From IMG/VR virus record IMGVR_UViG_3300031760_000155: a stretch of DNA of 43,146 bases; one strand, 5' to 3'. The DNA comes from a virus. This document shows, piece after piece, positions 2,454 to 37,931 of this stretch; position 1 is the first letter of the stretch; each line of letters begins with the position of its first letter. The position numbers and the translations under genes were made by a program. Under the pieces are notes generated by a model. The model was not told the DNA's origin and ran no database searches. It saw nothing but the letters and a program-made list of their open reading frames with translations.

Positions 2454-3768
2454 AGTAGCGCACCTCCCTTCCCATAGGGATGCAGACTATCTCGTCGGCC
2501 GTCAGCCTGTTGTCCACTATGAACTGGTCAAGGCGCGTGAATCCTTCCTGGCCGTAAAGTTCGCAAAGAAGCTCCATAATTTGTCTGTCACGTCCCAGCC
2601 TGATAATTCTAGTTACCGGCAACTCAAATGCCACCGTCTGCATCACCTGTATGGCACAAATTACCATGTCAAGCAAAACTTCGTAGCCCTCGCCTGTGTC
2701 AACGAATGCGTTCTTGCTCACCTGGCTGTCCATGTAGCATTTGTACACGTCAAACTCTTTTGCAATCAAATCGGCTGCTTCAAGAACGGAAGCCCGCGAT
2801 TCAAAACCGCCGTCCGAGATGCCACTACTAGCGTTAGAAGTTCCGGCAGCAACAGCCGTCTTTGCAACACCCAGGCTCATTGAATCCACAAGAACTCCAA
2901 CCATTAAGCTGGTAGACGCATACTGATTTTTTATTCCCGCCGCGCCTGCAATGTCTTTTTTAACACTGTTGATTATATCCGTTATGGCAGTGGCATAGCC
3001 TGAAATTTTTTCCGATGCCGCCATTGCCGTTTGTGCGGTAAGACGCGCCGCCTGCGTCAAAACCGACGCAATGTTTTGCGCATTTTCCTTAAGCTTGTCA
3101 ATTTTGCTCGTCCATTCGTTGACGTTCTTTTTTAGGTTGTTAATTTTTTGCAGTACCGCGCTTTTTTCTTTAAAATCGTTTATTTTTTCCGCAATGGCAG
3201 AAACATTTTTAAAAAGTGAATCCGCCTGCGCCTTAAGAACGCTTTGCAGCTGCATCTCGTCTTCTACGCTGCCTGTCTCAATCATGCCAATAAAAGACAC
3301 TTCTGCCGCATTCTCATATTCTGCCGCAGCTTCATCCAATGCATCAACCGCAGACACTTTGCTTTCCGGCAGTGGTTTGTCCGTTATGCTTTCAGAAAAG
3401 GTCACGTCAACGGTGGCTTCGTTAAGGCCTGAAAGAACGTTGTCGGCACGGCTAATTTCGCCTGTAGGCACAACCGTATGCTTGCCATAGACAGGATGTT
3501 CAAGAGTACCATAGCCACGGACGCTAAGCAGTTTTTCAAAATCGTCGGCATCCCTCATGCAGTCTGGCCCGCTAAAAATTGCGGTCATCGGGAATTTTTT
3601 TCCGCCCAAGCCCAGGGGCTGCACTTCCGCGCCGTCTACATCCGGGAAGGTATGCTCCGCCGTCTTTAGCGGTGTCTCCCTTCTAAGCTGCGATTCAAAA
3701 TTGAAAACCATCCGCCTGCCGTCTGGTGATGTGTACGCCGCTTGTCTAATTTGTTCAGTCCATGCCAT
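2446..3768 (-). CDS. Mu gp43-like DNA circulation (tail/baseplate) protein
   Basis: N-terminus ...HTFPDVDGAEVQPLGLGGKKFPMTAIFSG...GYGTLEHPVYG matches the DNA_circ_N pattern (H-FP-D...DLG...G-G-L-HP-G). Confidence 0.8.
   Translation of the reverse strand: MAWTEQIRQAAYTSPDGRRMVFNFESQLRRETPLKTAEHTFPDVDGAEVQPLGLGGKKFPMTAIFSGPDCMRDADDFEKLLSVRGYGTLEHPVYGKHTVVPTGEISRADNVLSGLNEATVDVTFSESITDKPLPESKVSAVDALDEAAAEYENAAEVSFIGMIETGSVEDEMQLQSVLKAQADSLFKNVSAIAEKINDFKEKSAVLQKINNLKKNVNEWTSKIDKLKENAQNIASVLTQAARLTAQTAMAASEKISGYATAITDIINSVKKDIAGAAGIKNQYASTSLMVGVLVDSMSLGVAKTAVAAGTSNASSGISDGGFESRASVLEAADLIAKEFDVYKCYMDSQVSKNAFVDTGEGYEVLLDMVICAIQVMQTVAFELPVTRIIRLGRDRQIMELLCELYGQEGFTRLDQFIVDNRLTADEIVCIPMGREVRYYA
2825..2840 (-). 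promoter_or_regulatory. 16-bp near-palindrome, plus strand CTACTAGCGTTAGAAG (copy 1 of 4), inside the gp43-like gene
   Basis: Minus sense CTTCTAACGCTAGTAG, encoding TSNASS. Confidence 0.75.
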
Positions 3769-3795
3769 TTTTTTTCTTTCCGCCTTTCCTTTGTT

Positions 3796-3990
3796 TTAAT
3801 TCAGCTTTTTATTTTTCGCTAGGTTTTTTGTAAAAGGCTCGTTCATTTCTCTCCAGGTTTTCTTTGGCCCATTTCCGGCATTGCACATCCTATAGCCCTT
3901 TTGGAATTCCGCATAATTCTTGGCCGTTATCATCGTGACCAAACCTATTAGGTTTGTTATGTTGCTCCTGTTTACCCGCCCTGAATGCAT
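3796..3990 (-). CDS. Hypothetical 64-aa protein (short version of track ORF 3796-4104)
   Basis: The ATG at 3988-3990 overlaps the TGA of the upstream gene by 1 nt (TGATG), suggesting translational coupling. Confidence 0.45.
   Translation of the reverse strand: MHSGRVNRSNITNLIGLVTMITAKNYAEFQKGYRMCNAGNGPKKTWREMNEPFTKNLAKNKKLN
3813..3828 (-). promoter_or_regulatory. AACCTAGCGAAA box (copy upstream of the gp43-gp45 block)
   Basis: Minus sense AAAACCTAGCGAAAAA, 46 nt upstream of the gp43-like ATG. Overlaps the end of the 64-aa ORF. Confidence 0.55.
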
Positions 3991-4616
3991 CACGCCTCCT
4001 CGTCTATGTACCAGCCTTTGTATTCGTTCCCGTCCTTCAATAATTTGTGCATCACCTCTATCGGTATCTCTGCACCGAATTTTTTTTTGAGCACACATCT
4101 GCAAACATAAATATTAGTAAAGTGATATATGCGGCCATTGTTAATATTTTTGTTAAAAGCAATTACCGCCTTTAAGGCCGCGTTGTGCTTAAGTTCCAGC
4201 TCCTCTTTAATTCCCTTTATATCTTCCCATTTATAATAGCGTCGCGGATAAAAGCTCACATCATCCACGTAGAGATAACCTTTGATCCCCTTTTTTTTTA
4301 CGATTGCATAAAGCCGCTCTGGCGAAATCCCTAATTTTTTGGCGGCAACCTTCCATGCCACCAAAAAATTAGGGACTTTATTCATATAAATTTTTTCGCC
4401 ATTCTTTGAAGCTGCCGCCCTTTTCTTTATTTGTGCCTGCCTCTTTTCATCTTCATACTCAAAGAGCCATCTGCGCCCTGTGAGAACCCCATTCTTAATC
4501 CTGTTGGACACTGTTGACTGCGACAAATTGAAGTATCGTGCACATTCTGCTATCTGCCCAAAGCAAAAGCTTTCCCCTGTCTGTACATCCTTGACAAGAA
4601 CCCTAACGTCCTTCAT
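3990..4616 (-). CDS. Putative DNA-binding protein with two NUMOD1-like helix-turn-helix segments
   Basis: Start MKDVRV at 4616 with GGAGGT upstream. HTH-like segments are FGQIAECARYFNLSQSTVSNRIKNG and WKVAAKKLGISPERLYAIVKKKG. No nuclease motif seen. Confidence 0.5.
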   Translation of the reverse strand: MKDVRVLVKDVQTGESFCFGQIAECARYFNLSQSTVSNRIKNGVLTGRRWLFEYEDEKRQAQIKKRAAASKNGEKIYMNKVPNFLVAWKVAAKKLGISPERLYAIVKKKGIKGYLYVDDVSFYPRRYYKWEDIKGIKEELELKHNAALKAVIAFNKNINNGRIYHFTNIYVCRCVLKKKFGAEIPIEVMHKLLKDGNEYKGWYIDEEA

Positions 4617-4744
4617 TTGAACCTCCAGTGAATTATTGCCGCAACCAAAAGGCAAAAAACTATTATCAAAGCTCCAAAAGGAATAATCAAATCCTGGTAA
4701 ACAAAAGCAAAAGTTTCCAACCGCTCAAAAAGCCGTCCAACCAT
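4613..4744 (-). CDS. Small 43-aa membrane protein (below the track cutoff)
   Basis: Hand translation: MVGRLFERLETFAFVYQDLIIPFGALIIVFCLLVAAIIHWRFK. The ATG overlaps the upstream TGA and its TGA overlaps the downstream ATG (ATGA). Confidence 0.45.
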   Translation of the reverse strand: MVGRLFERLETFAFVYQDLIIPFGALIIVFCLLVAAIIHWRFK

Positions 4745-4917
4745 CAGCCCTGCCTCCTTGCCGTTTCCATCCTGTCTGCCAGCTTCATTGCCTCACTTAC
4801 CCTTATGTAGTTTATTTTCCGCAGGGCATCCTCCAGCCTTATGCCCTGTTGCACCTGGCTTTTTATGAAGTCTGCAATCTTTTCGTCTCTGCTCTTTTTG
4901 CGCTCGTTTCCGTTCAT
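4744..4917 (-). CDS. Hypothetical 57-aa protein coupled to terL
   Basis: The ATG at 4915-4917 overlaps the terL TGA at 4914-4916 (ATGA). The longer track version 4744-4977 would lie inside terL. Confidence 0.5.
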   Translation of the reverse strand: MNGNERKKSRDEKIADFIKSQVQQGIRLEDALRKINYIRVSEAMKLADRMETARRQG

Positions 4918-6905
4918 GAATTGCCCTCCCTGTAGAATGCCTGGGTGGCCTTTGCGTAAGTCCAAAAGGCCTGCCATTCAAGCGACTTAAAGCCCAGGTC
5001 ATTCCGGCAAATGTCATCCGCAAAAATCTCCAAAGCGGCCTTGTTGTAAACGCGCGTATCGAACGCGTGGTTGTCCGCGCCGAATTTCTGCCGCCAGACC
5101 GTCTTTTGATAGCGTCCGTTCCTGTCCACAAGCTCGACCTTTTCTTCTGCCTCGTACATCTTGAAATAGTCGTCGCCAAAATCTTCCGGAAAATTCGGGT
5201 ACCAATTCGGCTGCGCCTGCCCGTCATTCCAGAAGAGGCGGTTCATTTCATTTGCTATTCTGTCCTTAATCAAACCTGTGTTGACGTGGTAGGCAAGCGG
5301 AAGCCCTATCTGCTGCAAAGTGCCCTTTGAGAATAGCTGCCATGTTGCGCCGTCCTTAATCCAGTCCTGTCCCTTGCAGGCGTAAACACCCGCCGCAAAC
5401 TGCTGCACAAAGGCATAGACCCATCCAGTGTAGTGGCCGCTGTCCACAAGCGTTATCATGGGGCGGTACTTGCGCCCGTCTTCATCGGTGTAATCGGTTT
5501 GTATCAACTCTGAAAGCTTTGTCCAGGGCCCGCCAAACTGCTCCACGTCCCCCTCAATCCATTTGAAGTCAATGGAAAAATTGCAGCCCCTGTCAGTATA
5601 GCCAACAAGGTCAAAATAAAGGCCGTTTTTCTGAACGTCAACGGATGCAACAAGAATTAAAATTGGTGAGCCTGTGTCACGCACGGCAAGGCGGTTGGGA
5701 ACATGCCCACGCGCAAAGCCCAGCCGCCTGTAGCGCAGGGCCCGCTCATAGCGTACCGTCTCATGCTGTTCACGGAAGGGCAGCCCCTGCTTAAGGTTGC
5801 GGAACACCCTGTATTTTTCTATGTCCTTAATTCTGTTTGTCTTTATGTCCCAGACCGTAGCCCATTCCGCTACATAATCCTCCCAGCTAAACATTCCGGG
5901 CGGATTATACAATGCGGTGATGTGGTAACTTTCAGCCCCTGGCCTTTCCGGCTGTGCCACGCTTGCCCGCCACTCACCTTTGGAAATAATTTCTGCCTTG
6001 TCATAGTTCCGCATGACCTTTCCGCAATGCGGGCATTTGTAGCCGACTGTATCAAGACGCGGCCGGAAGTTTTCATCATTTTCCCAAACGATGCCACCCA
6101 CCTGTTTGCCCTTGTCGTGCTCGTCCCAGATTGCCCATTCAAGCTTCTGCATGGTCCCGCAAAATTTGCAGGGCACATAAAAATATTTTTGCGTTCCAGT
6201 CAAAAAAAGAGAATGAATCAAAGAGCTGCCTTCATTCTTTGGCGTTGAACCTATGACAAGTTTTGAATGCGAGCCAAAGGCATCCTGCCTTGCCTTCATC
6301 AAAGTAAAAATATCGCCCTCACCCTTTAGCGTCATAAGGGCTGCATCCGCTTCATCTGCAAAAATGACCTTGAAGGAAAAGTTTCTGAACCGCGTTCCGC
6401 TTTTGCTTCCAAAAAGACGAAGGTTCCCACCCGGGTACTGCTTATGAAAGACCGTGTCTCCCGTGGTCCTTGCGCCTTTTGCTTTTTTTGACGTGCTTGT
6501 AATTCTTTCACGAAGCCCGCAATTGTCGATGCAGTTTTCAAGCTTCGTTTCTGAATAGCGTCTAACCATGCCGTCATCGGGAAGGAACAAAGCCTGCTCT
6601 TCCGGGTCGCTGCCAATGAAGTACATCATGCCAGGCTCAAGCACTCCTGTCGTGTACCCGCATTGATTGCCCTTCATCACAAAAATATATTTAGCCGGGC
6701 TTTCCGGGGAAAGGTTGTCCACAATTTCCTTGAAGTACGGGAATTTGTCATAGGTGAATTTTCCGGGGAATGGAGACAGCGAGCGGTCTATGTAGCGGAC
6801 GCGCTGAATGTATTCACTGGGCCGCTCATATTCACGCCGCTCCGGCAGACGCGCAAAGCGTTCAATGAGAAAGTCTATGTCCGATTTTTTTACAGCCACT
6901 TCCAT
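4914..6905 (-). CDS. terL: Terminase large subunit, lambda GpA family
   Basis: 663 aa. GpA-like layout: N-terminal ATPase region (VMKGNQCGYTTG, FADEAD) and a C-terminal nuclease part. Confidence 0.9.
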   Translation of the reverse strand: MEVAVKKSDIDFLIERFARLPERREYERPSEYIQRVRYIDRSLSPFPGKFTYDKFPYFKEIVDNLSPESPAKYIFVMKGNQCGYTTGVLEPGMMYFIGSDPEEQALFLPDDGMVRRYSETKLENCIDNCGLRERITSTSKKAKGARTTGDTVFHKQYPGGNLRLFGSKSGTRFRNFSFKVIFADEADAALMTLKGEGDIFTLMKARQDAFGSHSKLVIGSTPKNEGSSLIHSLFLTGTQKYFYVPCKFCGTMQKLEWAIWDEHDKGKQVGGIVWENDENFRPRLDTVGYKCPHCGKVMRNYDKAEIISKGEWRASVAQPERPGAESYHITALYNPPGMFSWEDYVAEWATVWDIKTNRIKDIEKYRVFRNLKQGLPFREQHETVRYERALRYRRLGFARGHVPNRLAVRDTGSPILILVASVDVQKNGLYFDLVGYTDRGCNFSIDFKWIEGDVEQFGGPWTKLSELIQTDYTDEDGRKYRPMITLVDSGHYTGWVYAFVQQFAAGVYACKGQDWIKDGATWQLFSKGTLQQIGLPLAYHVNTGLIKDRIANEMNRLFWNDGQAQPNWYPNFPEDFGDDYFKMYEAEEKVELVDRNGRYQKTVWRQKFGADNHAFDTRVYNKAALEIFADDICRNDLGFKSLEWQAFWTYAKATQAFYREGNS

Positions 6906-6920
6906 TTTTTTTTTAGGGGA

Positions 6921-6936
6921 CTTCTAACGTTAGAAG
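6921..6936. promoter_or_regulatory. Perfect 16-bp palindrome CTTCTAACGTTAGAAG (copy 2 of 4)
   Basis: Overlaps the MTase stop codon, 15 nt upstream of the terL ATG. Confidence 0.8.
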
Positions 6937-8165
6937 CCGCAGACCTCCTCCCAGCCAAAGAGCTCACCCGGCACGGAAAATTTTTCCGCCTGGTGCCGTG
7001 GCATGAAAACTTTTTCGCAAACCTTCAAGGCCGCCCCAGAACACAAAGTTGCACGGTGTGTAATTTTTTTTACGCAGCAGAATTTTTTTTCCGGCATTTC
7101 ATAGCTTGAAATAAAAACAGGCTCGGTCTGCTTTTCGCACCAGGCATAGAATTTTTCATAATCAAAGTCCATGCCATAGCCGTCCGTGTCTTTGTAGGGA
7201 ATGTCACAGTAGAGAATTGAATTTTTTAAAATGGGAATTTCATCATAGGACTTGGAGCAGACCTCCAGCCTTTGCAACCTTTGCAACCTTTGCAACCTTT
7301 GCAACCTTTGCAACCTTTGCAACCTTTGCAACCTTTGCAACCTTTCCAAACTTTCCAAACTTTGCAAACTTTGCACTGTCTCCAGAAGGAGGGCTACCCC
7401 GGACACCTCATCATAGTCAAGTGGTAAATCAATAATTTCTTGTAATTTCTGGTAATTTTCCTTTGTCGGAAATTCCCACTGGCTCTTGCTAAAGTAATGG
7501 CCTGCCATGCCGTTCGTTCCAAGATGGCGGTCAACGTCTGCCGCCGTCCTGCCGGATTTTTTCAGGCCGTCCACAAGGTACTGCCTAAGCTCCTCGCTTG
7601 TTTTTTTTATCTTTTCTTCAAGATTCTTTCTAAGCTCTTCTGTGTCAAGCTTTGTCTTTTCAATTTTTTTCAAATACCATTCAACGTAAAGCTTTTTGTA
7701 CTGCTCTTTATTTTCGCGGATGTCTTTTCTTGTTCCGTCAGTCCTTATTCCAAATTCGTTGAACAAGTCAAAGTTCCCAAACACACGCGCAAAATGCAAA
7801 GCCTTTTTCCAAGGTTCAACTTCCTTGCTGTAAAGATAGTCCTCGCCGTTGTTGCCAAAGCTCCAGACGTAGCGCACATAAGGCTCGCTGTCTTTTAGCC
7901 TGTAAAAATCACCGCGGGAGATCCACCTCCTTTCATTCTCAAACTTGCCCTCTATGGCATCGCGGAAAAGCTGGACCGGCCCCGCGTTAATGTCATTGGC
8001 TATGATGCGCTTGTAATTTTTGTGGGCAATGGCAAAGTGTGTCATTGCGCAGCCACCGGCAAAGAGGTCGTAGAAGTTTTCTGCCGTAGGAAAAATTTCA
8101 AAAATCTTTGCGGCAAGCTTTGACTTGCTTCCCTTGTATGGCAGGCCATATCTGTCGAAGTCCAT
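6930..8165 (-). CDS. Orphan DNA N6-adenine methyltransferase (Dam / D12 class) with an internal (LQR)n repeat
   Basis: YKGSKSKLA and FAGGCAM (SAM-binding region) at the N-terminus; CDIPY (DPPY-type catalytic motif) near the C-terminus. Inserted between terS and terL. Confidence 0.85.
   Translation of the reverse strand: MDFDRYGLPYKGSKSKLAAKIFEIFPTAENFYDLFAGGCAMTHFAIAHKNYKRIIANDINAGPVQLFRDAIEGKFENERRWISRGDFYRLKDSEPYVRYVWSFGNNGEDYLYSKEVEPWKKALHFARVFGNFDLFNEFGIRTDGTRKDIRENKEQYKKLYVEWYLKKIEKTKLDTEELRKNLEEKIKKTSEELRQYLVDGLKKSGRTAADVDRHLGTNGMAGHYFSKSQWEFPTKENYQKLQEIIDLPLDYDEVSGVALLLETVQSLQSLESLERLQRLQRLQRLQRLQRLQRLQRLQRLEVCSKSYDEIPILKNSILYCDIPYKDTDGYGMDFDYEKFYAWCEKQTEPVFISSYEMPEKKFCCVKKITHRATLCSGAALKVCEKVFMPRHQAEKFSVPGELFGWEEVCGF
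7269..7376. repeat. Tandem 9-bp repeat, 8 perfect CCTTTGCAA units plus 4 degenerate units, in-frame inside the Dam-like gene
   Basis: Counted directly. Encodes LQS LQS LES LER (LQR)x8 on the minus strand. Confidence 0.95.
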
Positions 8166-8959
8166 TAGATGGCCTCCTGCTCTTCAAGGCCACCGCCCAT
8201 TAGGTCGCGCTGCATAACCGCCTCTGTTTCCGCTTTGTCGTAGCGTCCCTTTAGCGCGTTAAGCTCTTCCACGATGTGCTCCTTTGCACCCGCTATGCAC
8301 TTTGTCAGGTTGTCAGACAAGATGTGCATCACGTTAATTCTGGCATCGTTTCCGCCTGCCAGGCTAACGGCTATCACCTGGTCGCATACCGCTTCCGGCA
8401 CGTCTAGCAGTTGGTTCATAAGGCCGTCCATGTAGCCAAAGACGCGCTGGACAACAAAGTCCTTTGGGATTTGCAGCAGGCGGCGTTCCTGTGTCTTCTG
8501 CTCGCGTTCGTCTGCCGCGGAAAGGTCGCGCTGTATCTTGGAAAATTGCTCCACGTTGTCCAGTGTACTGAATGAGCGCAACAGCTGCCGGATTGTCATA
8601 TCCATCATCAGGCGCGGTTTGTTTGGCGATGCCATGAGCCTCTTGCGCTCTTCTGTTTCTGCCGGGCCTGTCTGCTTTTCCTGTAGCGGTTGCATAGCAA
8701 TTTCTTGCGCCTGGAAATCTTGCCCAGGTTCAAAGTCTAGGCCGGATGCAACGGCTGCTTCTATTTTTTGAGTTCTTAGCTTTGTTTTTATTTTGTCCTG
8801 CTTGCGCTCCAGGTATGCGCGGTTCTTTGGATTGTCCGTGTCCAGTTTGCGGCCATTCTTTCCGCAATCCCTAACCAGCGTGCCGTCTTTTATTTTTTTG
8901 CACACCATCATGGCCGACACGCCGCACATCCGCGCAAAGTCCGATGCAGATACTTCCAT
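8165..8959 (-). CDS. terS: Putative terminase small subunit (N-terminal HTH)
   Basis: First gene of the late block, upstream of terL. N-terminal HTH-like segment SASDFARMCGVSAMMVCKKIKDGTL. Confidence 0.55.
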   Translation of the reverse strand: MEVSASDFARMCGVSAMMVCKKIKDGTLVRDCGKNGRKLDTDNPKNRAYLERKQDKIKTKLRTQKIEAAVASGLDFEPGQDFQAQEIAMQPLQEKQTGPAETEERKRLMASPNKPRLMMDMTIRQLLRSFSTLDNVEQFSKIQRDLSAADEREQKTQERRLLQIPKDFVVQRVFGYMDGLMNQLLDVPEAVCDQVIAVSLAGGNDARINVMHILSDNLTKCIAGAKEHIVEELNALKGRYDKAETEAVMQRDLMGGGLEEQEAI

Positions 8960-9495
8960 AGCGAAAATTTAAACATAGTTTATTCGTTTTCGCTAGGTTA
9001 TTGGAAAAAAAATAAACTCTTGTTTAAACTAAGGGTATGAGCGACAAAACGCACCCGCCGCCGAATAATTGCACCCCCGTATAGGGGGCTGGCAGTACCT
9101 TTTAACTTTTTACTATATATAGAGATAGACCTTTTTTAGTTCTTGTAACGTAACATTTTGTAACAATCTAAATCTTTATAATACAATGAATTACACGATT
9201 TTGTAACATTTCTAGGCATGTTTCATATCAATATGTACAGAAAAAAATTTTTTAAAAAGCCCGGAAAAAAGCTTCCAAAAACCCTTTAAAAAAATTTTTT
9301 TTTGTGTTTTTCAAATTAAACTCTTTAATTTATGTTACAATATTTTTACTTATTTCTTTATAATATAAAGAAATATAAACTTGTAACAATAAAAAACAGT
9401 AAAATGAGCAAAAAATAAAATTTTTTAAAAGAGGAAAATTTAAACTTTTTAACCGGAAAAATGAGCGCAAAAAAATTTTTTATTTTTTTTCAAAA
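8960..9495. promoter_or_regulatory. AT-rich 536-bp non-coding region between int and terS (candidate cos/pac plus late promoter region)
   Basis: Five TTGTAAC(A) copies at 9143, 9159, 9201, 9381 and inverted at 9333. A 10-bp inverted repeat TTTCTTTATA-A-TATAAAGAAA at 9353-9373. A CCCCC-GTATA-GGGGG hairpin near 9075-9089. Confidence 0.5.
8986..9000 (-). promoter_or_regulatory. AATAACCTAGCGAAA box (copy upstream of terS)
   Basis: Minus sense AATAACCTAGCGAAA, 26 nt upstream of the terS ATG. Identical 15-mer at 41869-41883. Confidence 0.6.
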
Positions 9496-13347: not shown

Positions 13348-13368
13348 TTCAATGACAAGGAGCATAAA

Positions 13369-24470: not shown

Positions 24471-24472
24471 CA

Positions 24473-26367: not shown

Positions 26368-26379
26368 CTTTTATTCCTC

Positions 26380-26958: not shown

Positions 26959-26960
26959 CC

Positions 26961-27665
26961 TTATTCCTCCGTCCATTCAACCGCAAGCACCGCCACCGTA
27001 TGGACAGGCTTAATGCGCAGAATGAAGTATTCAATGTAATTTTTGTAAATCCGCGGAATCTGCAATTTCTCCACATAAAGAATTTCATTGCGTGAATTGC
27101 GGACGATGTTCTTGCAAACATAAAAGCAGAACTCCCAGTACCGCTCGTCATTGGGGATTGAATAAGGCCCCGCCGTTCCATTCCTTAGAATTGTAGGCAC
27201 AAAGCTTTCATCGCCCTCGCGGTAGTCGCAGACCGCCTTTTCCCCATCGCACACCATTATCTCGTTATCGCAAACCGCAAAATAAGCGATGTTCGATTCG
27301 CGCGGATTTGCGCAAGGAATGTTTTCTTCAACAACAATTCCGGGAAAAACATTTTCCAAAACGCTGCGGATAAAATACAAGGACTGCCCGCCGTGGTTCA
27401 TGCCCCACAAAAGGCTTAGAAAGTTCCGCCTCTGCTCAATGTCCATGTTTGCCGAAAGAACGGTAAAAACCTCTTCCCACCTGTCAATGCAACGCGTTGA
27501 ATCCGGGAAGAAGTCCATGTAAACCCTTTCAATTTCCCGCCGCAAATCCTCCGGCAAGACGGCAATAGCCTCGAAAAGTTTCCGCACGTTCTTTTCCTGC
27601 GTCAAATTCCAGGCACTGCTGGAGGGAAGCAAATTTTTAACGGCGTTAAAAAAACTAGCCCTCAT
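26961..27665 (-). CDS. Mu gp48-like tail protein (YmfQ / DUF2313-like)
   Basis: LLPSSSAWNLTQEKNVRKLFEAIAVLPEDLRREIERVYMDFFPDSTRCIDRWEEVF fits the DUF2313 pattern. Start chosen at 27665 (11-nt overlap with the J-like gene). Confidence 0.65.
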   Translation of the reverse strand: MRASFFNAVKNLLPSSSAWNLTQEKNVRKLFEAIAVLPEDLRREIERVYMDFFPDSTRCIDRWEEVFTVLSANMDIEQRRNFLSLLWGMNHGGQSLYFIRSVLENVFPGIVVEENIPCANPRESNIAYFAVCDNEIMVCDGEKAVCDYREGDESFVPTILRNGTAGPYSIPNDERYWEFCFYVCKNIVRNSRNEILYVEKLQIPRIYKNYIEYFILRIKPVHTVAVLAVEWTEE

Positions 27666-28869: not shown

Positions 28870-29331
28870 TTACCGCACCGCCTCTGTCCATTGGAATTCA
28901 TAAGCGCACCCGCCCGTCTTTTTTCCGTCCTGCATGACCTCAACGCTAAGGTTGACGCTCTTTGCGCTGGTGGCAGAAAGCGACACATTAACCTCGTCCG
29001 CATCCACCTCAGTCCTTAACCATGCAAGGTCACGCCCAGCCGCCGCCTCTGCCTTCTGGATGTTCGCGCTTGTCAAAGGGTAGCCCGCAACTGTTGCCCC
29101 GAACTCGCTCTGCATCCATTCGCTCCTGTCTGTGCCTGGAATAAGGTTCCCCCACCAGGTCTCTTTCTCGCGCCCGTCCGCATCGCTTTCGTTCCCGCCA
29201 AAAAGTGAAAGATAAGCCGCCGTATCAAAGTTCCGGCAGTCCTTGACAAGCCCGTTTTCAATCTTTATGTCTCCGCCGTCCGGGGTCGCCGTGTAAAGCA
29301 CGTCCCCTTCAAATACGTTTACATCTTCCAT
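28870..29331 (-). CDS. Mu gp46-like baseplate protein (GP46 family)
   Basis: TAAYLSLFGGNESDADGREKETWWGNLIPGTDRSEW...AGRDLAWL fits the GP46 pattern (SLF...R..WWG...GS.LW...AL.WL). Confidence 0.7.
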   Translation of the reverse strand: MEDVNVFEGDVLYTATPDGGDIKIENGLVKDCRNFDTAAYLSLFGGNESDADGREKETWWGNLIPGTDRSEWMQSEFGATVAGYPLTSANIQKAEAAAGRDLAWLRTEVDADEVNVSLSATSAKSVNLSVEVMQDGKKTGGCAYEFQWTEAVR

Positions 29332-31493: not shown

Positions 31494-33142
31494 TACTCTT
31501 CACCCTCCGCATCCGTGCCGTATGCCGGGAAGCCGTTGTTGTCTTCAAGAACGTGCGGCGTGAAGTCCATGCGCTTCATAAGCTCGCGCTCGCGCTTAAT
31601 CGTCTGCATGACCTGGGCAAAGCTAAGGCCTGAATGTCTTCTTGCCTCTATGTCATAAGTGGTCAAACCGTTGTCCAAAAGCGTCTGGCTGGCCTGTGCC
31701 TCTTTGTTCCTATCAACTGCCGGACGGTTAAGTCCTGTCCAGGTGCATTGCATCCATGCGCTTGTGATGCGCCAACCGTCTGTAGTTCCCCATGAACGGA
31801 CAAAACCGGGAAGGTCAATCTGCCCGGTCAAAGCCATCTGGGTAAGCCATTCATTATAAATTGGCTGCGTAACCATTCCAGCGAACTTGCGGACAAAGCG
31901 GCTAAGGTAAACTTCAAATTCATTGTTGGCCTGTCTGGAAGCTGAATAGTTGTTCCCGAATTCAAGCATCAAAACTTCCGGCGGCAAGCCGTGGCTCCAA
32001 GCCAAAACAGAAATAACCGCTTTTTCAAAAGTTGCATAATTTACATTAGGCCTGTTGGTCTGGAAGCTCGTAATTTTTCCACCGTTAGGAGCCTTGTAGA
32101 CAGTACCGGGATTCATAATGTCAATCTGATTTGTCGGCGGTGTTACCGCAGGATAGTTTGGCGGCATGATTCCATCCGGCGCAGGTGGCAACGGTGCACC
32201 GCCAACCGCACCCGCTGCGGGAACCGCTCCCGGAACTGCCCCTGCCCTTGCAAGGTCGCTTGGCCTTGCAACGCTTATCGTGCCGGGGGCTTCCTCAAGG
32301 AAAAGCGGAATCATTGCATTAACAAGGGATGCGCGGACTTCTGCATCGCGTGTCCTGTCAAGGTCTTTGAGCATGTAAATTGAATCGGAAAGGAACGGCT
32401 CCCCGCGTACATCGTCTACGAAGTGCTCCCCACCGTAAACCATCCAGCTTATAAGCCGTCCGCTTCTTTCACCTCTTACCGGGATGCGCTCATATTTGAA
32501 TTCACCATTAACTTCACTCTGGACGTAAAAGGCAACACGCTTTCCCCATTTGTCAAATTCAACACCGTGCTTGATGTAGTGACCTTCAAGAAGGTTGTAT
32601 GTGTCAGGCGTTCTTACATGATCCCCATTCACCCACTGCCAGCGCGGAAGGTTTGTGTTCTTGTCGATGCGGGAAATTATGATGCCGTCTCCAGAAATAA
32701 GGCTTTCCATTCTAACACGTTCCTGGAAAGCTCCAAAATTTTCTTTTTTGCTCCAGTCAAAAACAGCGGGCGTATTTGAATACAGGTCAAACTGGGTGGC
32801 AATTTTGTCTCCCCATTCAACAGCTTCTTCTTCCCTCTCTATTTCATTCTTTCCAGGAAAAAGCACTGCCCCTACAGGCGTAGGGGTCGCAATTATGCCG
32901 GTATGAATCTCATTCCACACAAGGCGGCGTATAACACCCTTGGCATAAATGTTGGTGCGGAAAAGCTGCATTGACCTTTTTCTAAGTCTCCAGTAGTCAA
33001 CAAACGTCCATTCACTCACCGGGCCAAGAGAGCCAAAAAACTTTGAGCCGTCCCAAAAGTCGCGGCCAAAATAATCCGCCAAAGCCTTTACCGTGGTCTC
33101 TTTAAGAAATTTACTGTAGTTTGAAATTGATTTTTCGCTCAT
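31493..33142 (-). CDS. Portal protein, lambda gpB family
   Basis: 549 aa. NNYSASRQANNEFEVYLSRFVRKF and WTGLNRPAVDRNKEAQASQTLLDNGLTTY parallel lambda gpB segments. Confidence 0.85.
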   Translation of the reverse strand: MSEKSISNYSKFLKETTVKALADYFGRDFWDGSKFFGSLGPVSEWTFVDYWRLRKRSMQLFRTNIYAKGVIRRLVWNEIHTGIIATPTPVGAVLFPGKNEIEREEEAVEWGDKIATQFDLYSNTPAVFDWSKKENFGAFQERVRMESLISGDGIIISRIDKNTNLPRWQWVNGDHVRTPDTYNLLEGHYIKHGVEFDKWGKRVAFYVQSEVNGEFKYERIPVRGERSGRLISWMVYGGEHFVDDVRGEPFLSDSIYMLKDLDRTRDAEVRASLVNAMIPLFLEEAPGTISVARPSDLARAGAVPGAVPAAGAVGGAPLPPAPDGIMPPNYPAVTPPTNQIDIMNPGTVYKAPNGGKITSFQTNRPNVNYATFEKAVISVLAWSHGLPPEVLMLEFGNNYSASRQANNEFEVYLSRFVRKFAGMVTQPIYNEWLTQMALTGQIDLPGFVRSWGTTDGWRITSAWMQCTWTGLNRPAVDRNKEAQASQTLLDNGLTTYDIEARRHSGLSFAQVMQTIKRERELMKRMDFTPHVLEDNNGFPAYGTDAEGEE

Positions 33143-33457
33143 TTAGTACCCCGGCACTACTTGGCTCCACCGGCTATTGCCGTAGAGTGCATCTGTTAGC
33201 TGATTTATTTCCGCGACAAGCTTCTGCCGCCACGAATAAAGGGAGGCAAGATCTGAACGCTTGACCGTCTGCTTATCCTGCCCCGTGTCAATCGTATATT
33301 CTTGAATGCCCTGCGTCTCTGCCAGGTCATTTGTGAATGATGCTATCGCCCTGTCCACCTGGTTAAGAATGATGCGGTCATTCTTTAATTGTGTCTCCCA
33401 AAAAGTGAACGAATCTAAATTAGCAACACCATTGGGGTCTGGCAGAAGCATTCCCAT
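33143..33457 (-). CDS. gpW-like head-tail joining protein (short start at 33457)
   Basis: GAGGT SD before ATG 33457. EYTIDTGQDKQTVKRSDLASLYSWRQKLVAEI resembles gpW. Directly precedes the portal gene (TAAATG), as in lambda. Confidence 0.55.
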   Translation of the reverse strand: MGMLLPDPNGVANLDSFTFWETQLKNDRIILNQVDRAIASFTNDLAETQGIQEYTIDTGQDKQTVKRSDLASLYSWRQKLVAEINQLTDALYGNSRWSQVVPGY

Positions 33458-33588
33458 TTGAACCTCGCAAAAAATAGCAATAAAAATATCAATAAAGCTA
33501 TAAACGCTTAGCAATTTATAGCAAATTATCTTCTTATATAGTAGCAATTAATAACGCGTATAAACTCGCGTCAAAATCGCTTTATATG

Positions 33589-33632
33589 TCTGGGGGGCAA
33601 GAGGTCTCGGATTCGAATTCCGATAGCCCGAC
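33589..33632 (+). other. 3' half of a tRNA-Pro(GGG)-like sequence (anticodon loop to CC), not a complete tRNA gene
   Basis: CTGGGGG loop, GCAAG, AGGTC variable loop, TCGGA-TTCGAAT-TCCGA T-arm, TAGCCCG acceptor 3' strand, A73, CC. No complementary 5' acceptor or anticodon-stem strand upstream. Confidence 0.7.
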
Positions 33633-33633
33633 C

Positions 33634-33667
33634 TATAACTCCTTGTTTTACAAGGAGTTATTTTTTT
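33634..33667 (+). terminator. Strong intrinsic terminator immediately after the tRNA-like fragment
   Basis: ATAACTCCTTG-TTTTA-CAAGGAGTTAT (11-bp stem) followed by a T run. Confidence 0.8.
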
Positions 33668-33703
33668 ACCCAAAACCCCCGGGCAAAAAATATCAATAAA
33701 ATA

Positions 33704-34105
33704 TCAATAGCCACCCTTGCGCCAAAGGCAGCCCAAAAGCCCTTCCCTGCTCCTAAAAGCAAGCCTTGCCCCATCCTGCTTAAAACCGTCCTGTTCAAAA
33801 ACAATAAAATATTTCGTATTGTAGACGGCCACAAGAATTGCAACATGCCCATATTTATTTGAATTTGTCGCATCCCACACAAGAATATCCCCTCTTGAAT
33901 AGTCCGCAAGGGCGGAATCCCTTGTAACTTCAAGAACCCCCGGCTTGGTGATAATGTCCTTTGCACCTGCCACGGCCGGCGTTTGTTGAATGTCAAGAAC
34001 ATCACGGCAATAGGCTCGGTAAAGGTCAACACATTGTGCACCGTACTTGCCGTCAAAGTCAACCTTCTTGCCCTGGTTAGTTTTAATGAATTGTGTCAAA
34101 GTCAT
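33704..34105 (-). CDS. CHAP-domain endolysin
   Basis: GAQCVDLYRAY (catalytic Cys) and KYGHVAILVAV (His), 133 aa. GAGGTG SD upstream. Confidence 0.8.
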   Translation of the reverse strand: MTLTQFIKTNQGKKVDFDGKYGAQCVDLYRAYCRDVLDIQQTPAVAGAKDIITKPGVLEVTRDSALADYSRGDILVWDATNSNKYGHVAILVAVYNTKYFIVFEQDGFKQDGARLAFRSREGLLGCLWRKGGY

Positions 34106-34116
34106 TTCACACCTCT

Positions 34117-34169
34117 AAAAAAAACCGCGGGGTAAGCATGGGATGGGAATCGTGGGACAAACCCCGCGG
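34117..34169 (-). terminator. Hairpin plus T8 between the small membrane-protein gene and the endolysin gene
   Basis: Minus sense CCGCGGGG (rc of 34162-34169), 29-nt loop, CCCCGCGG (rc of 34125-34132), then T8. The large loop lowers confidence. Confidence 0.4.
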
Positions 34170-34179
34170 CTGGCAAACC

Positions 34180-34356
34180 CTAGTTCTTCTCTTCAACGAA
34201 GAGTGAGCAGACTTCTGTTGCTGCCGTAGACGCGATGCCGATGGCAGCAACAATCTGGACGGCATAAGCCGGCTGCATGTAAGTAACAACGGCACTGGCT
34301 ATGGCAGCCACACCGCCAACGATTCCAACAACAAGGTTGAACATCTTCTTGCTCAT
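34180..34356 (-). CDS. Small 58-aa hydrophobic protein (below the track cutoff)
   Basis: Hand translation: MSKKMFNLVVGIVGGVAAIASAVVTYMQPAYAVQIVAAIGIASTAATEVCSLFVEEKN. Its ATG directly follows the o-spanin stop (TAAATG). Confidence 0.55.
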   Translation of the reverse strand: MSKKMFNLVVGIVGGVAAIASAVVTYMQPAYAVQIVAAIGIASTAATEVCSLFVEEKN

Positions 34357-34626
34357 TTATTTCTCCTTGCCCTCATACAGGGCCTTTATGTCATTGTAAT
34401 TTTTTTCAGTCTCTTCAATCCTTATCCTGTACTCTGCCAGGCGGACAAGCCATTCCCCGGAAACGCTAACCGTCCCGTCCGGATTTTTTACCCCACTATC
34501 AAGGGAAGGAAAAACAGGAAAAACCAAATCAGGCACAAAAACCTTTTCCCTTGTGCCATTACTTGCGCAACTGCTCAAGAGCGTTGTCAACAGCGTCGCC
34601 ATCATGCAAAGCATCAATTTCCGCAT
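34357..34626 (-). CDS. Outer-membrane lipoprotein spanin (o-spanin, Rz1-like)
   Basis: Signal peptide with lipobox LLSSC (MRKLMLCMMATLLTTLLSSCASNG). The start overlaps the 3' end of the i-spanin gene by 68 nt. Confidence 0.7.
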   Translation of the reverse strand: MRKLMLCMMATLLTTLLSSCASNGTREKVFVPDLVFPVFPSLDSGVKNPDGTVSVSGEWLVRLAEYRIRIEETEKNYNDIKALYEGKEK

Positions 34627-34837
34627 CCGCTTTCCTCCTGTTTTCGCTCACCGCCTGCGAGGCATTCGTAAGCCGGGCAACCTGCCGCGCAAATTCGTTC
34701 TTTTCCTTTTCCAGGGCATCGCATTTACATTCTGCCATCTTAAGCTTTGCCTTAACGCTAAAAATTATCATCAACAGAAAAAAGCAAAGGAGCACCATAA
34801 AAAAAATGGCATAAAACAAAATTCTCTCAGCGTTCAT
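34559..34837 (-). CDS. Inner-membrane spanin (i-spanin, Rz-like)
   Basis: N-terminal TM segment (ILFYAIFFMVLLCFFLLMIIF) then a coiled-coil-like charged domain. Start chosen at ATG 34837. Confidence 0.65.
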   Translation of the reverse strand: MNAERILFYAIFFMVLLCFFLLMIIFSVKAKLKMAECKCDALEKEKNEFARQVARLTNASQAVSENRRKADAEIDALHDGDAVDNALEQLRK

Positions 34838-35075
34838 CCTCTGCCCTTCCCGTTCCCGTGAACTTGTCAAACATCAGGTTAAGGTCAATCGTTCCAGCCC
34901 CAAGGCCGTAAACAACAGACCATACGGTGCAAATCTCGCCGATGCTCGCACCGGGCAAAATCCCCATCCATTTCAAAACAGCGCAAAGCACAAGCCCGGA
35001 AGCTGCAACAATCTTAAAAACTTTGCTTATTACCTTTGCGGAAAATTTCTTCTTTTCCTCTTCTTCGTCTGCCAT
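34827..35075 (-). CDS. Holin candidate (82 aa, two hydrophobic segments)
   Basis: Charged N-terminus, two TM-like stretches, charged C-terminus. Located in the lysis cluster. Confidence 0.55.
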   Translation of the reverse strand: MADEEEEKKKFSAKVISKVFKIVAASGLVLCAVLKWMGILPGASIGEICTVWSVVYGLGAGTIDLNLMFDKFTGTGRAEDER

Positions 35076-35084
35076 GTCCCGCTC

Positions 35085-35405
35085 CTACCTTTGCGCAAGC
35101 CCGTCAATCTTCGTGTCGATTTTATTGACTAGGGCTGTCAAAGCCTCCACGCTCTTTGCAATGCGCTCCACATCCTTCTCGACGCGCACCACCCTTTCGT
35201 GCGTCTCGTTCTTCCCCTCATAAAGACGGTCAAACTTTCCGGCATCCTTCTGCCTGTCCTCTGCCGTCCTTTGCTCCAGGGTAAAGACGCGCTGCTCCAT
35301 CTTTCCATTTTGCTTCCCGATTTCAATCAATTTGAAAATCAAACCGCCACCAATAAGGAAGCTCCCGGCGGAAACGCAAATTGAAACGATGGAAAACACA
35401 TTCAT
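35085..35405 (-). CDS. Membrane-anchored coiled-coil protein (106 aa), lysis-cassette associated
   Basis: N-terminal TM segment (IVSICVSAGSFLIGGGLIF) followed by a charged helical region. Confidence 0.5.
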   Translation of the reverse strand: MNVFSIVSICVSAGSFLIGGGLIFKLIEIGKQNGKMEQRVFTLEQRTAEDRQKDAGKFDRLYEGKNETHERVVRVEKDVERIAKSVEALTALVNKIDTKIDGLAQR

Positions 35406-35614
35406 TCTTTTTCAGTCCTTTGCATTTTGATAAGACCTGGAATAAGCGGATCGTACCAAAAACGCAACTCGCCAAGCGTCAGGCTTTGCGGCATCATCGG
35501 CAGGTGGTAATTCTGATAGACCTCGCGAATCATCACCGGCACGCCCTCTTCCGCATTCACCTTCCGCCTTTGGCCGTTAAGGGCAACCTCAACCGTCAGC
35601 CCGCAATAAAAAAA
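35402..35614 (-). other. Programmed -1 frameshift site and 68-codon -1 frame extension (GT-like chaperone product)
   Basis: Slippery AGT TTT TTT ATT (35608-35614, minus sense). The -1 frame was hand-translated and is open from 35608 to the TGA at 35402-35404, which overlaps the next ATG. Confidence 0.7.
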
Positions 35615-36018
35615 CTTGTAATTATGTTCAGAATTTTGTAGTCAATGTTGTCCAGTTTTGCAAACCAGCCAACATCTCTTCCAGTCATTGAACTTAACAG
35701 GGCAAAGGTCTTGTGGACGCTTTGCTGGTCCTTGTAAGAATCCAATGCCATATAAGCCGCACTTGTCGGCCTTTTGATTACAAGCTTTGTTCCGGCATAC
35801 CCCTCGGGGCTCTTGTCGCTAACCGTGTACTCGAACTCGCAGTTGTCATTCACGATAAGCGAACCCCTGCGGATTGCCTTTATGAGCTTTGGAGCCGTTG
35901 CGTCAAGAAGTTTTGTCCCGTCCTTTACAGTCACGTAAAGGTCGATGTCGTTGTCATCCGCCCACCGCTCAATTTCCTGCATTGCCAGCTCTTCGCTCAT
36001 TTTTTCTTCGTTTGCCAT
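35596..36018 (-). CDS. Tail assembly chaperone (G-like, zero-frame product)
   Basis: Located directly after the tube gene. Ends just past a slippery T TTT TTT heptamer. Confidence 0.7.
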   Translation of the reverse strand: MANEEKMSEELAMQEIERWADDNDIDLYVTVKDGTKLLDATAPKLIKAIRRGSLIVNDNCEFEYTVSDKSPEGYAGTKLVIKRPTSAAYMALDSYKDQQSVHKTFALLSSMTGRDVGWFAKLDNIDYKILNIITSFFIAG

Positions 36019-36032
36019 TTTTTGTTCCTTCT

Positions 36033-36410
36033 TTACAGAATTCTTATTCTACCCGTCAGGGTAACTTCCATTGTTGATTCGTTGTCATTAAGTGAAGTTG
36101 AATCAGTGATCATCACCTCACCTTCGTACATCTTGCCGTCAACCCTTGTCGCAGAAAGCGGGACAGGTGCAAGCTTTGCCTTTACCTCGTTAATAAAATC
36201 AACGTCCCCGCGGTCCACGTCTATCTCAAGAGTAAGGCTCTCTATCTTCTGGACATGCCTTGTCTTTACGGTGCGGAAAGTTCCGTCTGAATTCGGCTTT
36301 ACCTCGTTGTCCCATTCGCTAAGGTCAACGCTTGCTTCACTTTCCGCATCGCATGTAAACCTGCGTCCGTTAAGCACTACGCTTTCAAGTGCGCCGTTTG
36401 CTTTAGCCAT
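36033..36410 (-). CDS. Tail tube protein
   Basis: 125 aa, immediately downstream of the sheath gene. AAGGAGGA SD upstream. Confidence 0.7.
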   Translation of the reverse strand: MAKANGALESVVLNGRRFTCDAESEASVDLSEWDNEVKPNSDGTFRTVKTRHVQKIESLTLEIDVDRGDVDFINEVKAKLAPVPLSATRVDGKMYEGEVMITDSTSLNDNESTMEVTLTGRIRIL

Positions 36411-36423
36411 CGCCTAATCCTCC

Positions 36424-37899
36424 TTAACCTACATACTGGCCAAAATACACATCGCCGGATACAACTTCAACGTTGCCGCTAATCTTGCATGGGAACGTGT
36501 AGTTGACGCGCTTAGGATTTTCGCTGTCAATGCCCACTTCGATGTTCTTGACTGTGAATTCAGGGTCGCTTATGATGGCAGCCATTCCAAGCGATGTCGC
36601 AAGGTTTGCGAGCCAAGTGTGGAACATCTTTGGCTGTATTGCAGTCGGATTGCTTGTCACCTGCTCGTCAGGAACAAGCGGTGCACCCTTAACCTCATCA
36701 CTTTCAGTAATAAGGCGCAAGTTGTAAACAACATTTGCAAGCTTTACCGCATCCACAACATAGCGGCGGATAGGGAACTTTCCGCTTCCTGCCGGATGGT
36801 AGAAAGTAACGATGTCGTTAAGCTCTGCCACGCTGCCGTTTGTTATGTTCGTGCTTGCACCCTTTATCACGCTTTGGTTTCTTACCGTGTAGCTTTCCTG
36901 TACGGTGTCAACACCGCGCTTCAAACCTGTAAGAACTCCCTTATAGTTCTGTGCCGGATTTGTGTCGGCAGTAGAAAGAATGTCAAGAAGTCCGCGGGCA
37001 GCAACAACAAAAGGAAGCTCAGGGCTTCCAACACTTTCAATCAGGAAGTTGATGTAGTCGCTTGGGCGTGCATCCGTGATGGCCGTGCGTGTTGCATAGT
37101 CATCGGTGCAGCCGTGCGCAACCATGACAGGTTTCTTTTCAAGTGCGCTCCATCTTCCCTCGCCCCATACCTGGAAGGCTTCGAGCTGTGCAGAAGCGTC
37201 TGCACCGTCCTTATAGTCGAATGTGTCAAGAATGAATGTTTCCCAGACCACATCGCCAATAGTTGCGAGCGCACCATCAACAGATGGCGTTCCCATTCCT
37301 CCAGCAAAAGCGGTCGTTGCAAATGTCAAACCGGCAACGTCTCCCTTCACTGAAAGGGAAATTCTGTTTCCGATTGCGCCGCTCCATTTTGCGGTAAAGG
37401 TAACAACACCGTCTGCCGCGGATGCGGACACGCAAGAGTTAAGCTCTGCATTCACGGCGGTTGCAATAAGGTCTGCAACGTCTGCCGCTGCCGCTTCCTT
37501 AAGAACCGCTATCTGAACGTCAAGCCCTGCGATGGAAACAACCACCGGGGCGGATGCCGTTGCGGTTCCTGTTATAGTGATGGAGCCCTTCGAAGCAACA
37601 AAGCCGCTGTCTCCTTTTTTTACCGGAACAATTGAAACCGGGAAGGTTGCCATCGCTCCAGAAGAAGGGAAAAGCTGCAAGGCGGCCAAATGCAAAGGCG
37701 AACCAAATCCGTAACGCTCGCCAACGCTTGCCGCGCTTCCATCACATTCATATTTGTTTGTAGAATAGGCAACGCTGTCATTTCCCTGGCCAATAATTAC
37801 CAGCCTCTGGGGAAGCATTGAAGCATTGCCTACGTTAAAGTTCCTAGGCGTAACAGATATGCCTGTAACGCGGGAAACCGCGCTTGCACTCACACCCAT
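36424..37899 (-). CDS. Contractile tail sheath protein (Mu gpL-like)
   Basis: 491 aa. Located upstream of the tube and chaperone genes. AAGGAG SD upstream. Confidence 0.75.
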   Translation of the reverse strand: MGVSASAVSRVTGISVTPRNFNVGNASMLPQRLVIIGQGNDSVAYSTNKYECDGSAASVGERYGFGSPLHLAALQLFPSSGAMATFPVSIVPVKKGDSGFVASKGSITITGTATASAPVVVSIAGLDVQIAVLKEAAAADVADLIATAVNAELNSCVSASAADGVVTFTAKWSGAIGNRISLSVKGDVAGLTFATTAFAGGMGTPSVDGALATIGDVVWETFILDTFDYKDGADASAQLEAFQVWGEGRWSALEKKPVMVAHGCTDDYATRTAITDARPSDYINFLIESVGSPELPFVVAARGLLDILSTADTNPAQNYKGVLTGLKRGVDTVQESYTVRNQSVIKGASTNITNGSVAELNDIVTFYHPAGSGKFPIRRYVVDAVKLANVVYNLRLITESDEVKGAPLVPDEQVTSNPTAIQPKMFHTWLANLATSLGMAAIISDPEFTVKNIEVGIDSENPKRVNYTFPCKISGNVEVVSGDVYFGQYVG

Positions 37900-37915
37900 C
37901 TTTTATCTCCTTTCA

Positions 37916-37931
37916 CTTCTAGCGTTAGAAG
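37916..37931 (-). promoter_or_regulatory. 16-bp near-palindrome, plus strand CTTCTAGCGTTAGAAG (copy 4 of 4)
   Basis: Minus sense CTTCTAACGCTAGAAG, 16 nt upstream of the sheath ATG, just before its SD. Confidence 0.75.

Follow-up and report, generated by a model that had tools for sequence, protein, structure and literature searches.

What is the function of a 16-bp near-palindrome that occurs four times in the genome of a temperate phage, once within the phage's own parB gene? The question is raised by IMG/VR record IMGVR_UViG_3300031760_000155, a stretch of viral DNA of 43,146 nucleotides (the window, at its full length), for which a preliminary description had offered two answers, a parS-type centromere or an RNA hairpin signal. 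The analyses presented here indicate that the four copies are quite probably centromere-like parS sites of the ParA-ParB pair that the phage itself encodes; binding by ParB and a role in partition are what we infer from comparison with related phages and with known ParB proteins. The window would thus encode a known type of partition system with a putative, previously undescribed parS family of the form CTWCTNNCGNNAGWAG. Three variant strings of this family, and the 12-bp core of one of them, were absent from the searchable literature.

Four exact copies of a 16-bp palindrome in the window

A search of the window with the pattern YTTCTAACGYTAGWAG returned exactly four matches, starting at 2825, 6921, 15392 and 37916, which confirms all four copies that had been located in the preliminary description:

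2825-2840, minus strand: copy CTTCTAACGCTAGTAG, inside a Mu gp43-like baseplate hub gene, read T-S-N-A-S-S
6921-6936: candidate parS, the perfect 16-bp palindrome CTTCTAACGTTAGAAG, between the genes for a D12-class methyltransferase and terL
15392-15407, plus strand: parB-internal copy TTTCTAACGCTAGTAG, encoding I-S-N-A-S-S (residues 227-232) in the linker after the ParB DNA-binding domain
37916-37931, minus strand: copy CTTCTAACGCTAGAAG, 16 nt 5' of the sheath start codon

Dinucleotide shuffles gave 0.00 matches to the same pattern, and the earlier statement that the copy number lies beyond chance is borne out. A mismatch-tolerant search, which had been suggested alongside that statement, detected no further copy in the window at up to three mismatches to the perfect palindrome (0.13 expected). 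The generalised family pattern with two mismatches produced six extra weak matches, where 3.1 matches in all are expected by chance. With exact copies at zero expectation and no halo of degenerate ones around them, the motif is not a compositional artefact.

Two copies are intergenic and two are coding. As had been noticed from the sequence, the intergenic ones precede start codons by 15 nt (terL) and 16 nt (sheath), and the coding ones are translated in a single frame as S-N-A-S-S, in the contexts AGTSNASSGI (gp43-like protein) and EAISNASSPK (ParB). The TAA within the 6921 copy is the stop codon of the upstream methyltransferase gene, and a counterpart of this copy is present at the same place in relative L175, in the form CTTCTAACGCTAGAAG. 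The 37916 copy lies within an insertion of ~25 nt (A8 plus the motif) that has no counterpart in relatives at sheath identities of 77% or less, in which stop codon, ribosome-binding site (RBS) and ATG directly follow one another before the sheath gene; it is conserved only in the near-identical fragments L003, L019, L096 and L132. The insertion is recent. Both coding copies occupy hypervariable linkers, that of the gp43-like gene being rich in Ser, Gly and Ala. Taken together with the relatives described below, the sites seem to occupy whatever places can accommodate a 16-bp palindrome: intergenic spacers, terminator hairpins (in relatives) and flexible protein linkers.

The three asymmetric copies are hybrids, with one half being CTTCTAAC and the other half of a type used by relatives (CTACTAGC or CTTCTAGC). 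The 15392 copy, for instance, combines one half of the window type with one of the CTACTAGC type. All three carry ACGC on the sense strand of the local gene, as originally pointed out; the chance probability of this is 1/4 for n=3, and relatives do not keep the orientation. The copy upstream of terL in L175 has its asymmetry on the antisense strand, and in the parB-internal copy of L260 the differing half-site is the other one.

A Spo0J-type ParB and a Walker ATPase encoded in the early operon

The proposed binder of the motif is encoded in an early operon consisting of Ant, SSB, ParA, two small open reading frames (ORFs), ParB, an 85-residue ORF and a primase-helicase. The parA and parB genes thus lie between the SSB and primase genes:

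13369-14091, plus strand: ParA-type Walker ATPase of 240 residues with a deviant Walker A motif (KGGTGKT), putative partner of ParB
14713-15795, plus strand: ParB of 360 residues, proposed motif binder, with a ParB_N CTPase-type domain and a helix-turn-helix (HTH) DNA-binding domain
15795-16052, plus strand: 85-residue protein, a cassette member that always follows parB in relatives

ParB matched the Pfam family ParB_N with an E-value of 1.1e-10; its match to HTH_ParB was below the cut-off for that family, and a faint match to KorB was likewise below the cut-off (17.5 vs 22.3 bits). A phmmer search against the PDB aligned residues 6-204 of ParB with Thermus Spo0J (1vz0, 4.7e-16), and further matches were ParB 6t1f and 4umk, Noc 7ol9 and KorB 8qa8 (3.4e-7). 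The matches, among them those to Myxococcus and Caulobacter ParB, H. pylori Spo0J, Noc and KorB, extend over residues 6-220, a range that takes in both the CTPase domain and the DNA-binding domain; no SopB structure was found among the phmmer PDB matches. Two boxes spanned by the Thermus Spo0J alignment, the arginine box IAGGRRIRA (GxxRxxA type) and ENIQRADLSP (ENxQRxxL type), are invariant in the alignment of the ParB family. By these comparisons ParB is a genuine Spo0J/Noc-type protein in which the CTP-binding motifs are kept, and CTP binding is predicted. Its recognition helix is SKPISWVSDTMAGAK. Relatives of the ParB/Noc family bind 16-bp palindromes with central ACGT or CG (PMC7383237).

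ParA matched the PHROG ParA-like family (7.4e-35) and the Pfam families AAA_31, CbiA, MipZ and ParA. Its gene is situated ~0.6 kb 5' of parB with only the two small ORFs in between, one of which is missing in relative L138, though six sites are present there. The 85-residue protein contains no known domain and no recognisable DNA-binding domain in profile scans. It could represent a third cassette component.

The palindrome within parB is conserved as DNA

Relatives were gathered through homologues of ParB, ParA, sheath and TerL from IMG/VR, from ENA/Logan assemblies and from JGI metagenomes. In most ParB homologues with DNA sequence, down to ~41% ParB identity, the parB linker contains a 16-bp palindrome that follows CTWCTNNCGNNAGWAG, without synonymous changes over this range. 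It is located in the disordered, variable segment that follows the DNA-binding domain and is always in frame 2, with the following sequences (the two halves are separated by a hyphen):

Window clade: (C/T)T(T/A)CTAAC-GCTAGTAG
L094: CTACTAGC-GCTAGTAa
Most other homologues: CTACTCAC-GTGAGTA(C/G)
L156 and L176: CTACTAAC-GTAAGTA(A/G)

The five motif codons ACT ACT CAC GTG AGT were identical in 133 of 133 pairwise comparisons, against a same-codon background of 67% for identical residues; non-synonymous changes that stay within the family pattern (V to A) do occur. The constraint on the in-gene site thus operates at the level of the DNA and not of the peptide, and it accounts for the semi-conserved linker peptides TTHVST, TSNASS and TTNVSS.

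Across 120 ParB homologues, each variant of the recognition helix goes with a particular linker peptide encoded by the site:

Helix KPIQWVSDIVAGAK: linker peptide TTHVST (47 homologues)
Helix KPISWVSDTMAGAK: linker peptide TSNASS
Helix CKPISYVSDIVAGMK: linker peptide TTNVSS

T147 is one of the helix residues that mark the window clade, and Ile is found there in the others. Placed through the alignment to Thermus Spo0J and the consensus GKSRSxVANxLRLL, T147 of the window ParB corresponds to Caulobacter T179. The latter is one of the four specificity positions of ParB/Noc proteins (PMC7383237). A simple residue-to-base code, in which Ser or Gln at 142 would specify half-site base 6 and Thr147 or Met148 base 3, was also considered and does not hold strictly.

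Genome-specific site variants accompany parAB in related phages

Conservation in related phages had been named in the preliminary description as a check on the motif, and the motif family is indeed conserved in relatives with a homologous ParB. Besides the in-gene site, every relative genome has between 1 and 7 other copies, which as a rule belong to the variant of that genome. The variant met most often, CTACTCACGTGAGTAG, is identical to the canonical chromosomal parS over the eight central bases, TCACGTGA, and is present in six copies in contig 3300022661_000159, a 43,060-bp relative rebuilt from three loci. Contig 3300032007_000191, a relative of 39.7 kb, has four copies of CTACTTACGTAAGTAG together with an in-gene CTACTAACGTAAGTAa, and other clades use CTACTTTTGAAAGTAG, CTACTTACAAAAGTAG or CTTCTAATGTTAGAAG. 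A prophage in a Treponema metagenome-assembled genome (MAG), whose structural proteins are 37-60% identical in amino acid sequence to those of the window, contains four perfect copies of the window's own variant, none of them at the window positions.

Several relatives also have a family-type palindrome, CTACTTACGTAAGTAC, in the primase-helicase gene, each time at the same conserved position (L134-136, ~13033-13934; L176, 13159; L261, 7396; L262, 6238). The window primase has no equivalent of this copy.

The motif co-occurs with the partition genes. Among fragments of at least 10 kb that are positive for parA or parB, 21 of 24 carry it. The syntenic relative L215 passes directly from SSB to primase, without parAB and without the 85-residue ORF, and has zero motif copies in 21.9 kb; homologues of the integrase, TerS, TerL, SSB and primase are all present there.

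Prophages carrying the motif family come from GC backgrounds of 0.42, 0.47 and 0.545. Over 185,579 genomes (596 Gb), the exact 16-mer was no more frequent than expected by chance, with no enrichment in any bacterial genome; the only genome with several copies in this search was the Treponema MAG that carries the related prophage. This spread over GC backgrounds and the absence of enrichment in bacteria indicate that the recogniser of the motif is encoded by the phage and not by the host. A host-factor site or host-wide repeat was rejected on the same frequencies.

The locus thus combines the elements of a Spo0J-type ParABS system: a ParA ATPase gene beside parB, the N-terminal boxes of the CTP-binding domain, an HTH homologous to those of proteins that bind 16-bp parS, and palindromic sites on the same replicon and in or near the par operon (four, one inside parB). 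Site and ParB also co-occur and co-vary, with the exceptions given below.

A model for ParB loading on the phage genome

The in-gene site, the genome-specific variants, the co-occurrence with parAB and the ParB homology provide strong comparative support for the earlier proposal that the motif is parS for the ParB-like protein. In the proposed mechanism, a ParB dimer would recognise two 8-bp half-sites, CT(T/A)CTA(A/G)C, on double-stranded DNA through its HTH. It would then bind CTP, close into a clamp and slide away, as Spo0J-type ParBs do. The window is a circular assembly of a complete genome of ~43,019 bp (nt 1-127 are identical to nt 43020-43146), and loading at four sites round this 43-kb circle would coat the phage DNA. 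ParA would position and segregate the resulting ParB-DNA complexes, stabilising an extrachromosomal form of the phage, and the ParB coat might in addition dampen or insulate gene expression. The half-site hybrids suit a dimer that reads each half independently and sit badly with a hairpin. That closely related phages differ so much in their site variants would be in keeping with selection against partition incompatibility.

Several observations weigh against this assignment. Site variants are mixed within some genomes (L134-136, L155), and L213, L165/L142 and L170 are positive for parA or parB with no family motif in the parts of the fragments examined. The covariation of helix and site is at the level of clades, is not phylogenetically independent and falls short of a clean code: in L138-141 helix position 142 is Ser although the variant is CAC, and half-site positions 1 and 3 of the in-gene site differ even among members of the window's own ParB clade. 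The 85-residue gene 3' of parB co-occurs with the cassette and is an alternative candidate for the binder. Many of the intergenic copies in relatives are also terminator-like hairpins, and an RNA- or transcription-level role may coexist with ParB sites. With respect to lifestyle, the phage also encodes a tyrosine integrase, and ParB-bearing relatives are found within long bacterial contigs (L176 in 568 kb; L178/L179, which are Treponema sp. by NCBI name and directly flanked by host genes). At least some parAB-bearing relatives thus appear to be integrated or remnants, and a plasmid-like prophage state is therefore only a candidate.

It is conceivable, although rather doubtful, that the sites are more than centromeres. 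Throughout this phage family they would then be built into the tips of late-operon terminators and into linkers, and would couple ParB-CTP loading to transcription-unit boundaries. If this were true, ParB could keep the late genes of a lysogen silent or insulated, along the lines of KorB or N15, and the rapid diversification of ParB-parS specificities, with at least eight site variants in close relatives, would sort co-resident, integrase-bearing Treponema-type rumen prophages into incompatibility or exclusion groups.

Alternative explanations for the motif

The second proposal of the preliminary description, an RNA hairpin before the RBS, fares poorly. Such a hairpin, in the early and late transcripts, could terminate or attenuate transcription, direct processing or serve as a translational operator, and would owe its conservation to recombinational spread or to an RNA-binding protein. 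The two intergenic copies of the window can form hairpins of 7-8 bp, at -6.5 kcal/mol (z -3.3) and -10 kcal/mol (z -1.3), but these fold weakly and no sense-strand U-run follows them. For the two coding copies no hairpin forms (z +0.4 and +1.7), and the half-site hybrids put 1-2 mismatches into the stem. The exact 16-mer is kept at non-homologous positions, between unrelated flanks and in parB, whereas a bare stem would not demand a particular sequence. The position before the RBS is not conserved, the sheath-upstream copy being part of the ~25-nt insertion, nor is the sense-strand bias kept in relatives. Finally, the motif is absent from L215, which lacks parAB though the same late genes are present. 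As an explanation of the window copies the hairpin is improbable.

In relatives, many copies do resemble intrinsic terminators. At least three extra palindromic flank pairs, differing in sequence from copy to copy, surround 23 of the 73 unique copies outside long ORFs, and an adjacent T-run is present at 34 of these 73; extended palindromic flanks were seen at 0 of 31 copies inside long ORFs. All three late-region copies of L109 are among its terminator-like matches; two of them account for the ranks first, third and fourth, with folding energies of -17.6 and -21.4 kcal/mol (z -5.8 and -7.3), and the third copy ranks lower. The site in relatives thus often seems to form the tip of an intergenic terminator hairpin, an embedding that the window's own copies lack. 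This may be mere economy, a terminator being already a palindromic intergenic element, or it may link ParB loading to transcription-unit boundaries. What stands of the hairpin idea is confined to these terminator-like structures around intergenic copies in relatives.

Still less probable is recognition of the motif by a different phage protein, namely the 85-residue protein, the CI-like repressor (in a stoperator-like manner), TerS, or the primase-helicase (with the motif as an origin element). The gene of the 85-residue protein co-occurs with parAB in relatives and is lost with it in L215, but the protein has no recognisable DNA-binding domain. Repressor homologues follow the clades as well; no copy of the motif, however, lies in the repressor or early switch region of any genome examined, and in L176, where a non-homologous gene takes the place of the repressor beside int, both ParB and the motif family are retained. 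The repressor is accordingly an unlikely binder. Homologues of TerS, TerL, integrase, SSB and primase are all found in the motif-free L215. A 16-bp palindrome with a CG or ACGT centre is, moreover, the site architecture of the ParB/Noc family.

A recombination hotspot or small mobile palindrome that marks module boundaries and drives reshuffling of the late block is highly improbable. The order of late modules does differ among relatives, many copies lie at block boundaries (terS-terL, terL-protease, portal-tape measure, tube-next gene and lysin-protease), and the sheath-upstream copy of the window was recently inserted. The novel junctions of the window itself are nevertheless free of copies: portal and tape measure genes overlap by 1 nt, and none is present from terL to gp43 or from gp45 to the protease. 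Neither the conserved copy in parB nor those in linkers mark a junction, intergenic placement is predicted equally well if such spacers simply tolerate a 16-bp insert, and no dedicated recombinase correlates with the motif.

A LacI/CcpA-type operator was dropped since the half-site is a poor match to cre/PurR-type operators; a methyltransferase or restriction target because L102, which lacks the methyltransferase gene between terS and terL, keeps the motif; and a homing-endonuclease site because a multi-copy 16-bp site does not fit a nuclease target. The ParBs of phages with 5mYOX have no DNA-binding domain and are paired with a dioxygenase instead of ParA (PMC13229309). This type was rejected for the window protein on both counts.

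A palindrome look-alike was encountered in an unrelated phage group (L005/L015, which is IMGVR_UViG_3300025417_000106, L012 and L018), with up to 12 copies of the same 16-mer in the early region. The palindromes of this group form a separate family, TCTAA-NN-TTAGA (centre CG, GC or TA), which (L145-L150 included) occurs in 4-12 copies per ~20 kb in the early region, mostly at gene ends; relatives of the group carry TCTAAGCTTAGA or TCTAATATTAGA instead. No ParB was detected in the TCTAA-NN-TTAGA phage family. A protein common to the window and this group was rejected, phmmer finding no homology between them. The identity of the 16-mer is a coincidence of two palindrome families and is neutral with regard to ParB.

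Genome context

Scans of the window proteins against PHROG and Pfam revealed the gene content of a temperate myophage. The structural set comprises terS, a methyltransferase, a gpA-type terL, Mu gp43/gp44-like hub proteins, head genes, sheath and tube; also present are a lysis cassette, portal, tape measure and baseplate genes, a tyrosine integrase, a CI-like repressor and a diversity-generating retroelement (DGR). A megablast search of the window against INPHARED found no close relative among deposited phage genomes.

The late gene order (window 1-8959 and 24887-41840) is non-canonical and varies among relatives (L101, L104, L109, L114). In the window, a gp43-gp45 hub block follows terL, and the portal gene comes after the lysis cassette, immediately 5' of the tape measure gene. 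Relatives have terL-portal-lysis-protease, or terL-protease followed further on by tube-lysis-portal-tape measure-gp43. The DGR, at 23203-26092, is complete:

23203-24174, minus strand: reverse transcriptase
24366-24470: template repeat (TR)
24473-24847, minus strand: bAvd
24924-25028: variable repeat (VR), at the 3' end of the Mtd-like tail gene 24887-26092

Nine of the 11 differences between TR and VR are at TR adenines.

The gap between terS and int (8960-9495) is AT-rich and contains three AAAAAATTTTTT palindromes at 9242, 9288 and 9470, which are conserved in L092. The gap is probably a cos/att region, because linear contigs of several relatives stop within a few hundred bases of it. Positions 20000-24000 have a GC content of ~0.36, against ~0.47 elsewhere, and harbour another DNA methyltransferase gene, the second of the window (20250-21014), along with a series of small ORFs; this is probably an accessory or recently acquired segment.

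Significance

A function is hereby proposed for an unannotated repeat, and the parS family to which it is assigned is that of numerous DGR-bearing myophages associated with the rumen and with Treponema. Helix variants that occur in nature, each paired with a site variant, make up a ready data set on the evolution of ParB/Noc DNA specificity, and the in-gene site offers a clear case in which a constraint on DNA fixes a peptide (TTHVS or TSNAS) in a disordered linker. The presence of an integrase and parABS in one phage raises the question of when an episomal state is used. In practice, the motif is a simple annotation marker for these ParB systems.

Comparison with known partition systems

The closest resemblance in protein and site is to chromosomal ParABS (Spo0J/ParB with the 16-bp parS TGTTNCACGTGAAACA). 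ParB is homologous over the N-terminal CTPase and HTH domains, ParA is a small Walker ATPase, and the sites are 16-bp palindromes with central CG or ACGT, of which the commonest phage variant shares the inner TCACGTGA. They are, moreover, present as several dispersed copies with one inside parB; the first B. subtilis parS lies inside spo0J. Different from chromosomal parS, the outer arms of the phage sites are CTWCT instead of TGTTT, and the window variant has the inner sequence TAAC-GTTA. Only the central ACGT is shared by the window variant, and a search of the window for TGTTNCACGTGAAACA gave 0 matches at up to three mismatches. The window helix has I, D and A where chromosomal ParB has R173, N178 and R181 (Caulobacter numbering). 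The phage system also differs in residing on a 43-kb temperate genome and in having sites diversified into many phage-specific variants.

Phage N15 carries four dispersed SopB sites, IR1-4, with slightly different centres (PMC7205306). The window resembles it in being a temperate phage with a lambda-type gpA terminase and four single, scattered palindromic sites. N15 differs in its type Ia, F-like SopA/SopB, its linear plasmid prophage and its protelomerase; the window has a Spo0J-like ParB, a short ParA (240 residues), a circular assembly, an integrase and one site inside parB. With a ParA of this length and best ParB matches to Spo0J/ParB/Noc, the window system does not belong to the N15/F-type SopABC (type Ia) systems, and the resemblance is confined to the dispersed layout of the sites. 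The N15 Sop system reportedly also aids late gene expression.

KorB of plasmid RK2 is likewise a ParB-family CTPase with dispersed palindromic operators (OB), and it combines partition with global repression; the window ParB matches its structure 8qa8. The OB operators number a dozen dispersed copies. In the window, by contrast, the Pfam KorB match is sub-threshold, no KorA partner was identified and the sites are not at promoters.

Among temperate phages, the cluster A mycobacteriophages are said to carry parABS of diverse specificity, with partition incompatibility among related phages. In these actinobacteriophages parABS reportedly stands in place of an integration cassette, with a cluster of parS repeats beside parAB. 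The window differs from them in that an integrase is also present and in that its sites are single and dispersed round the genome.

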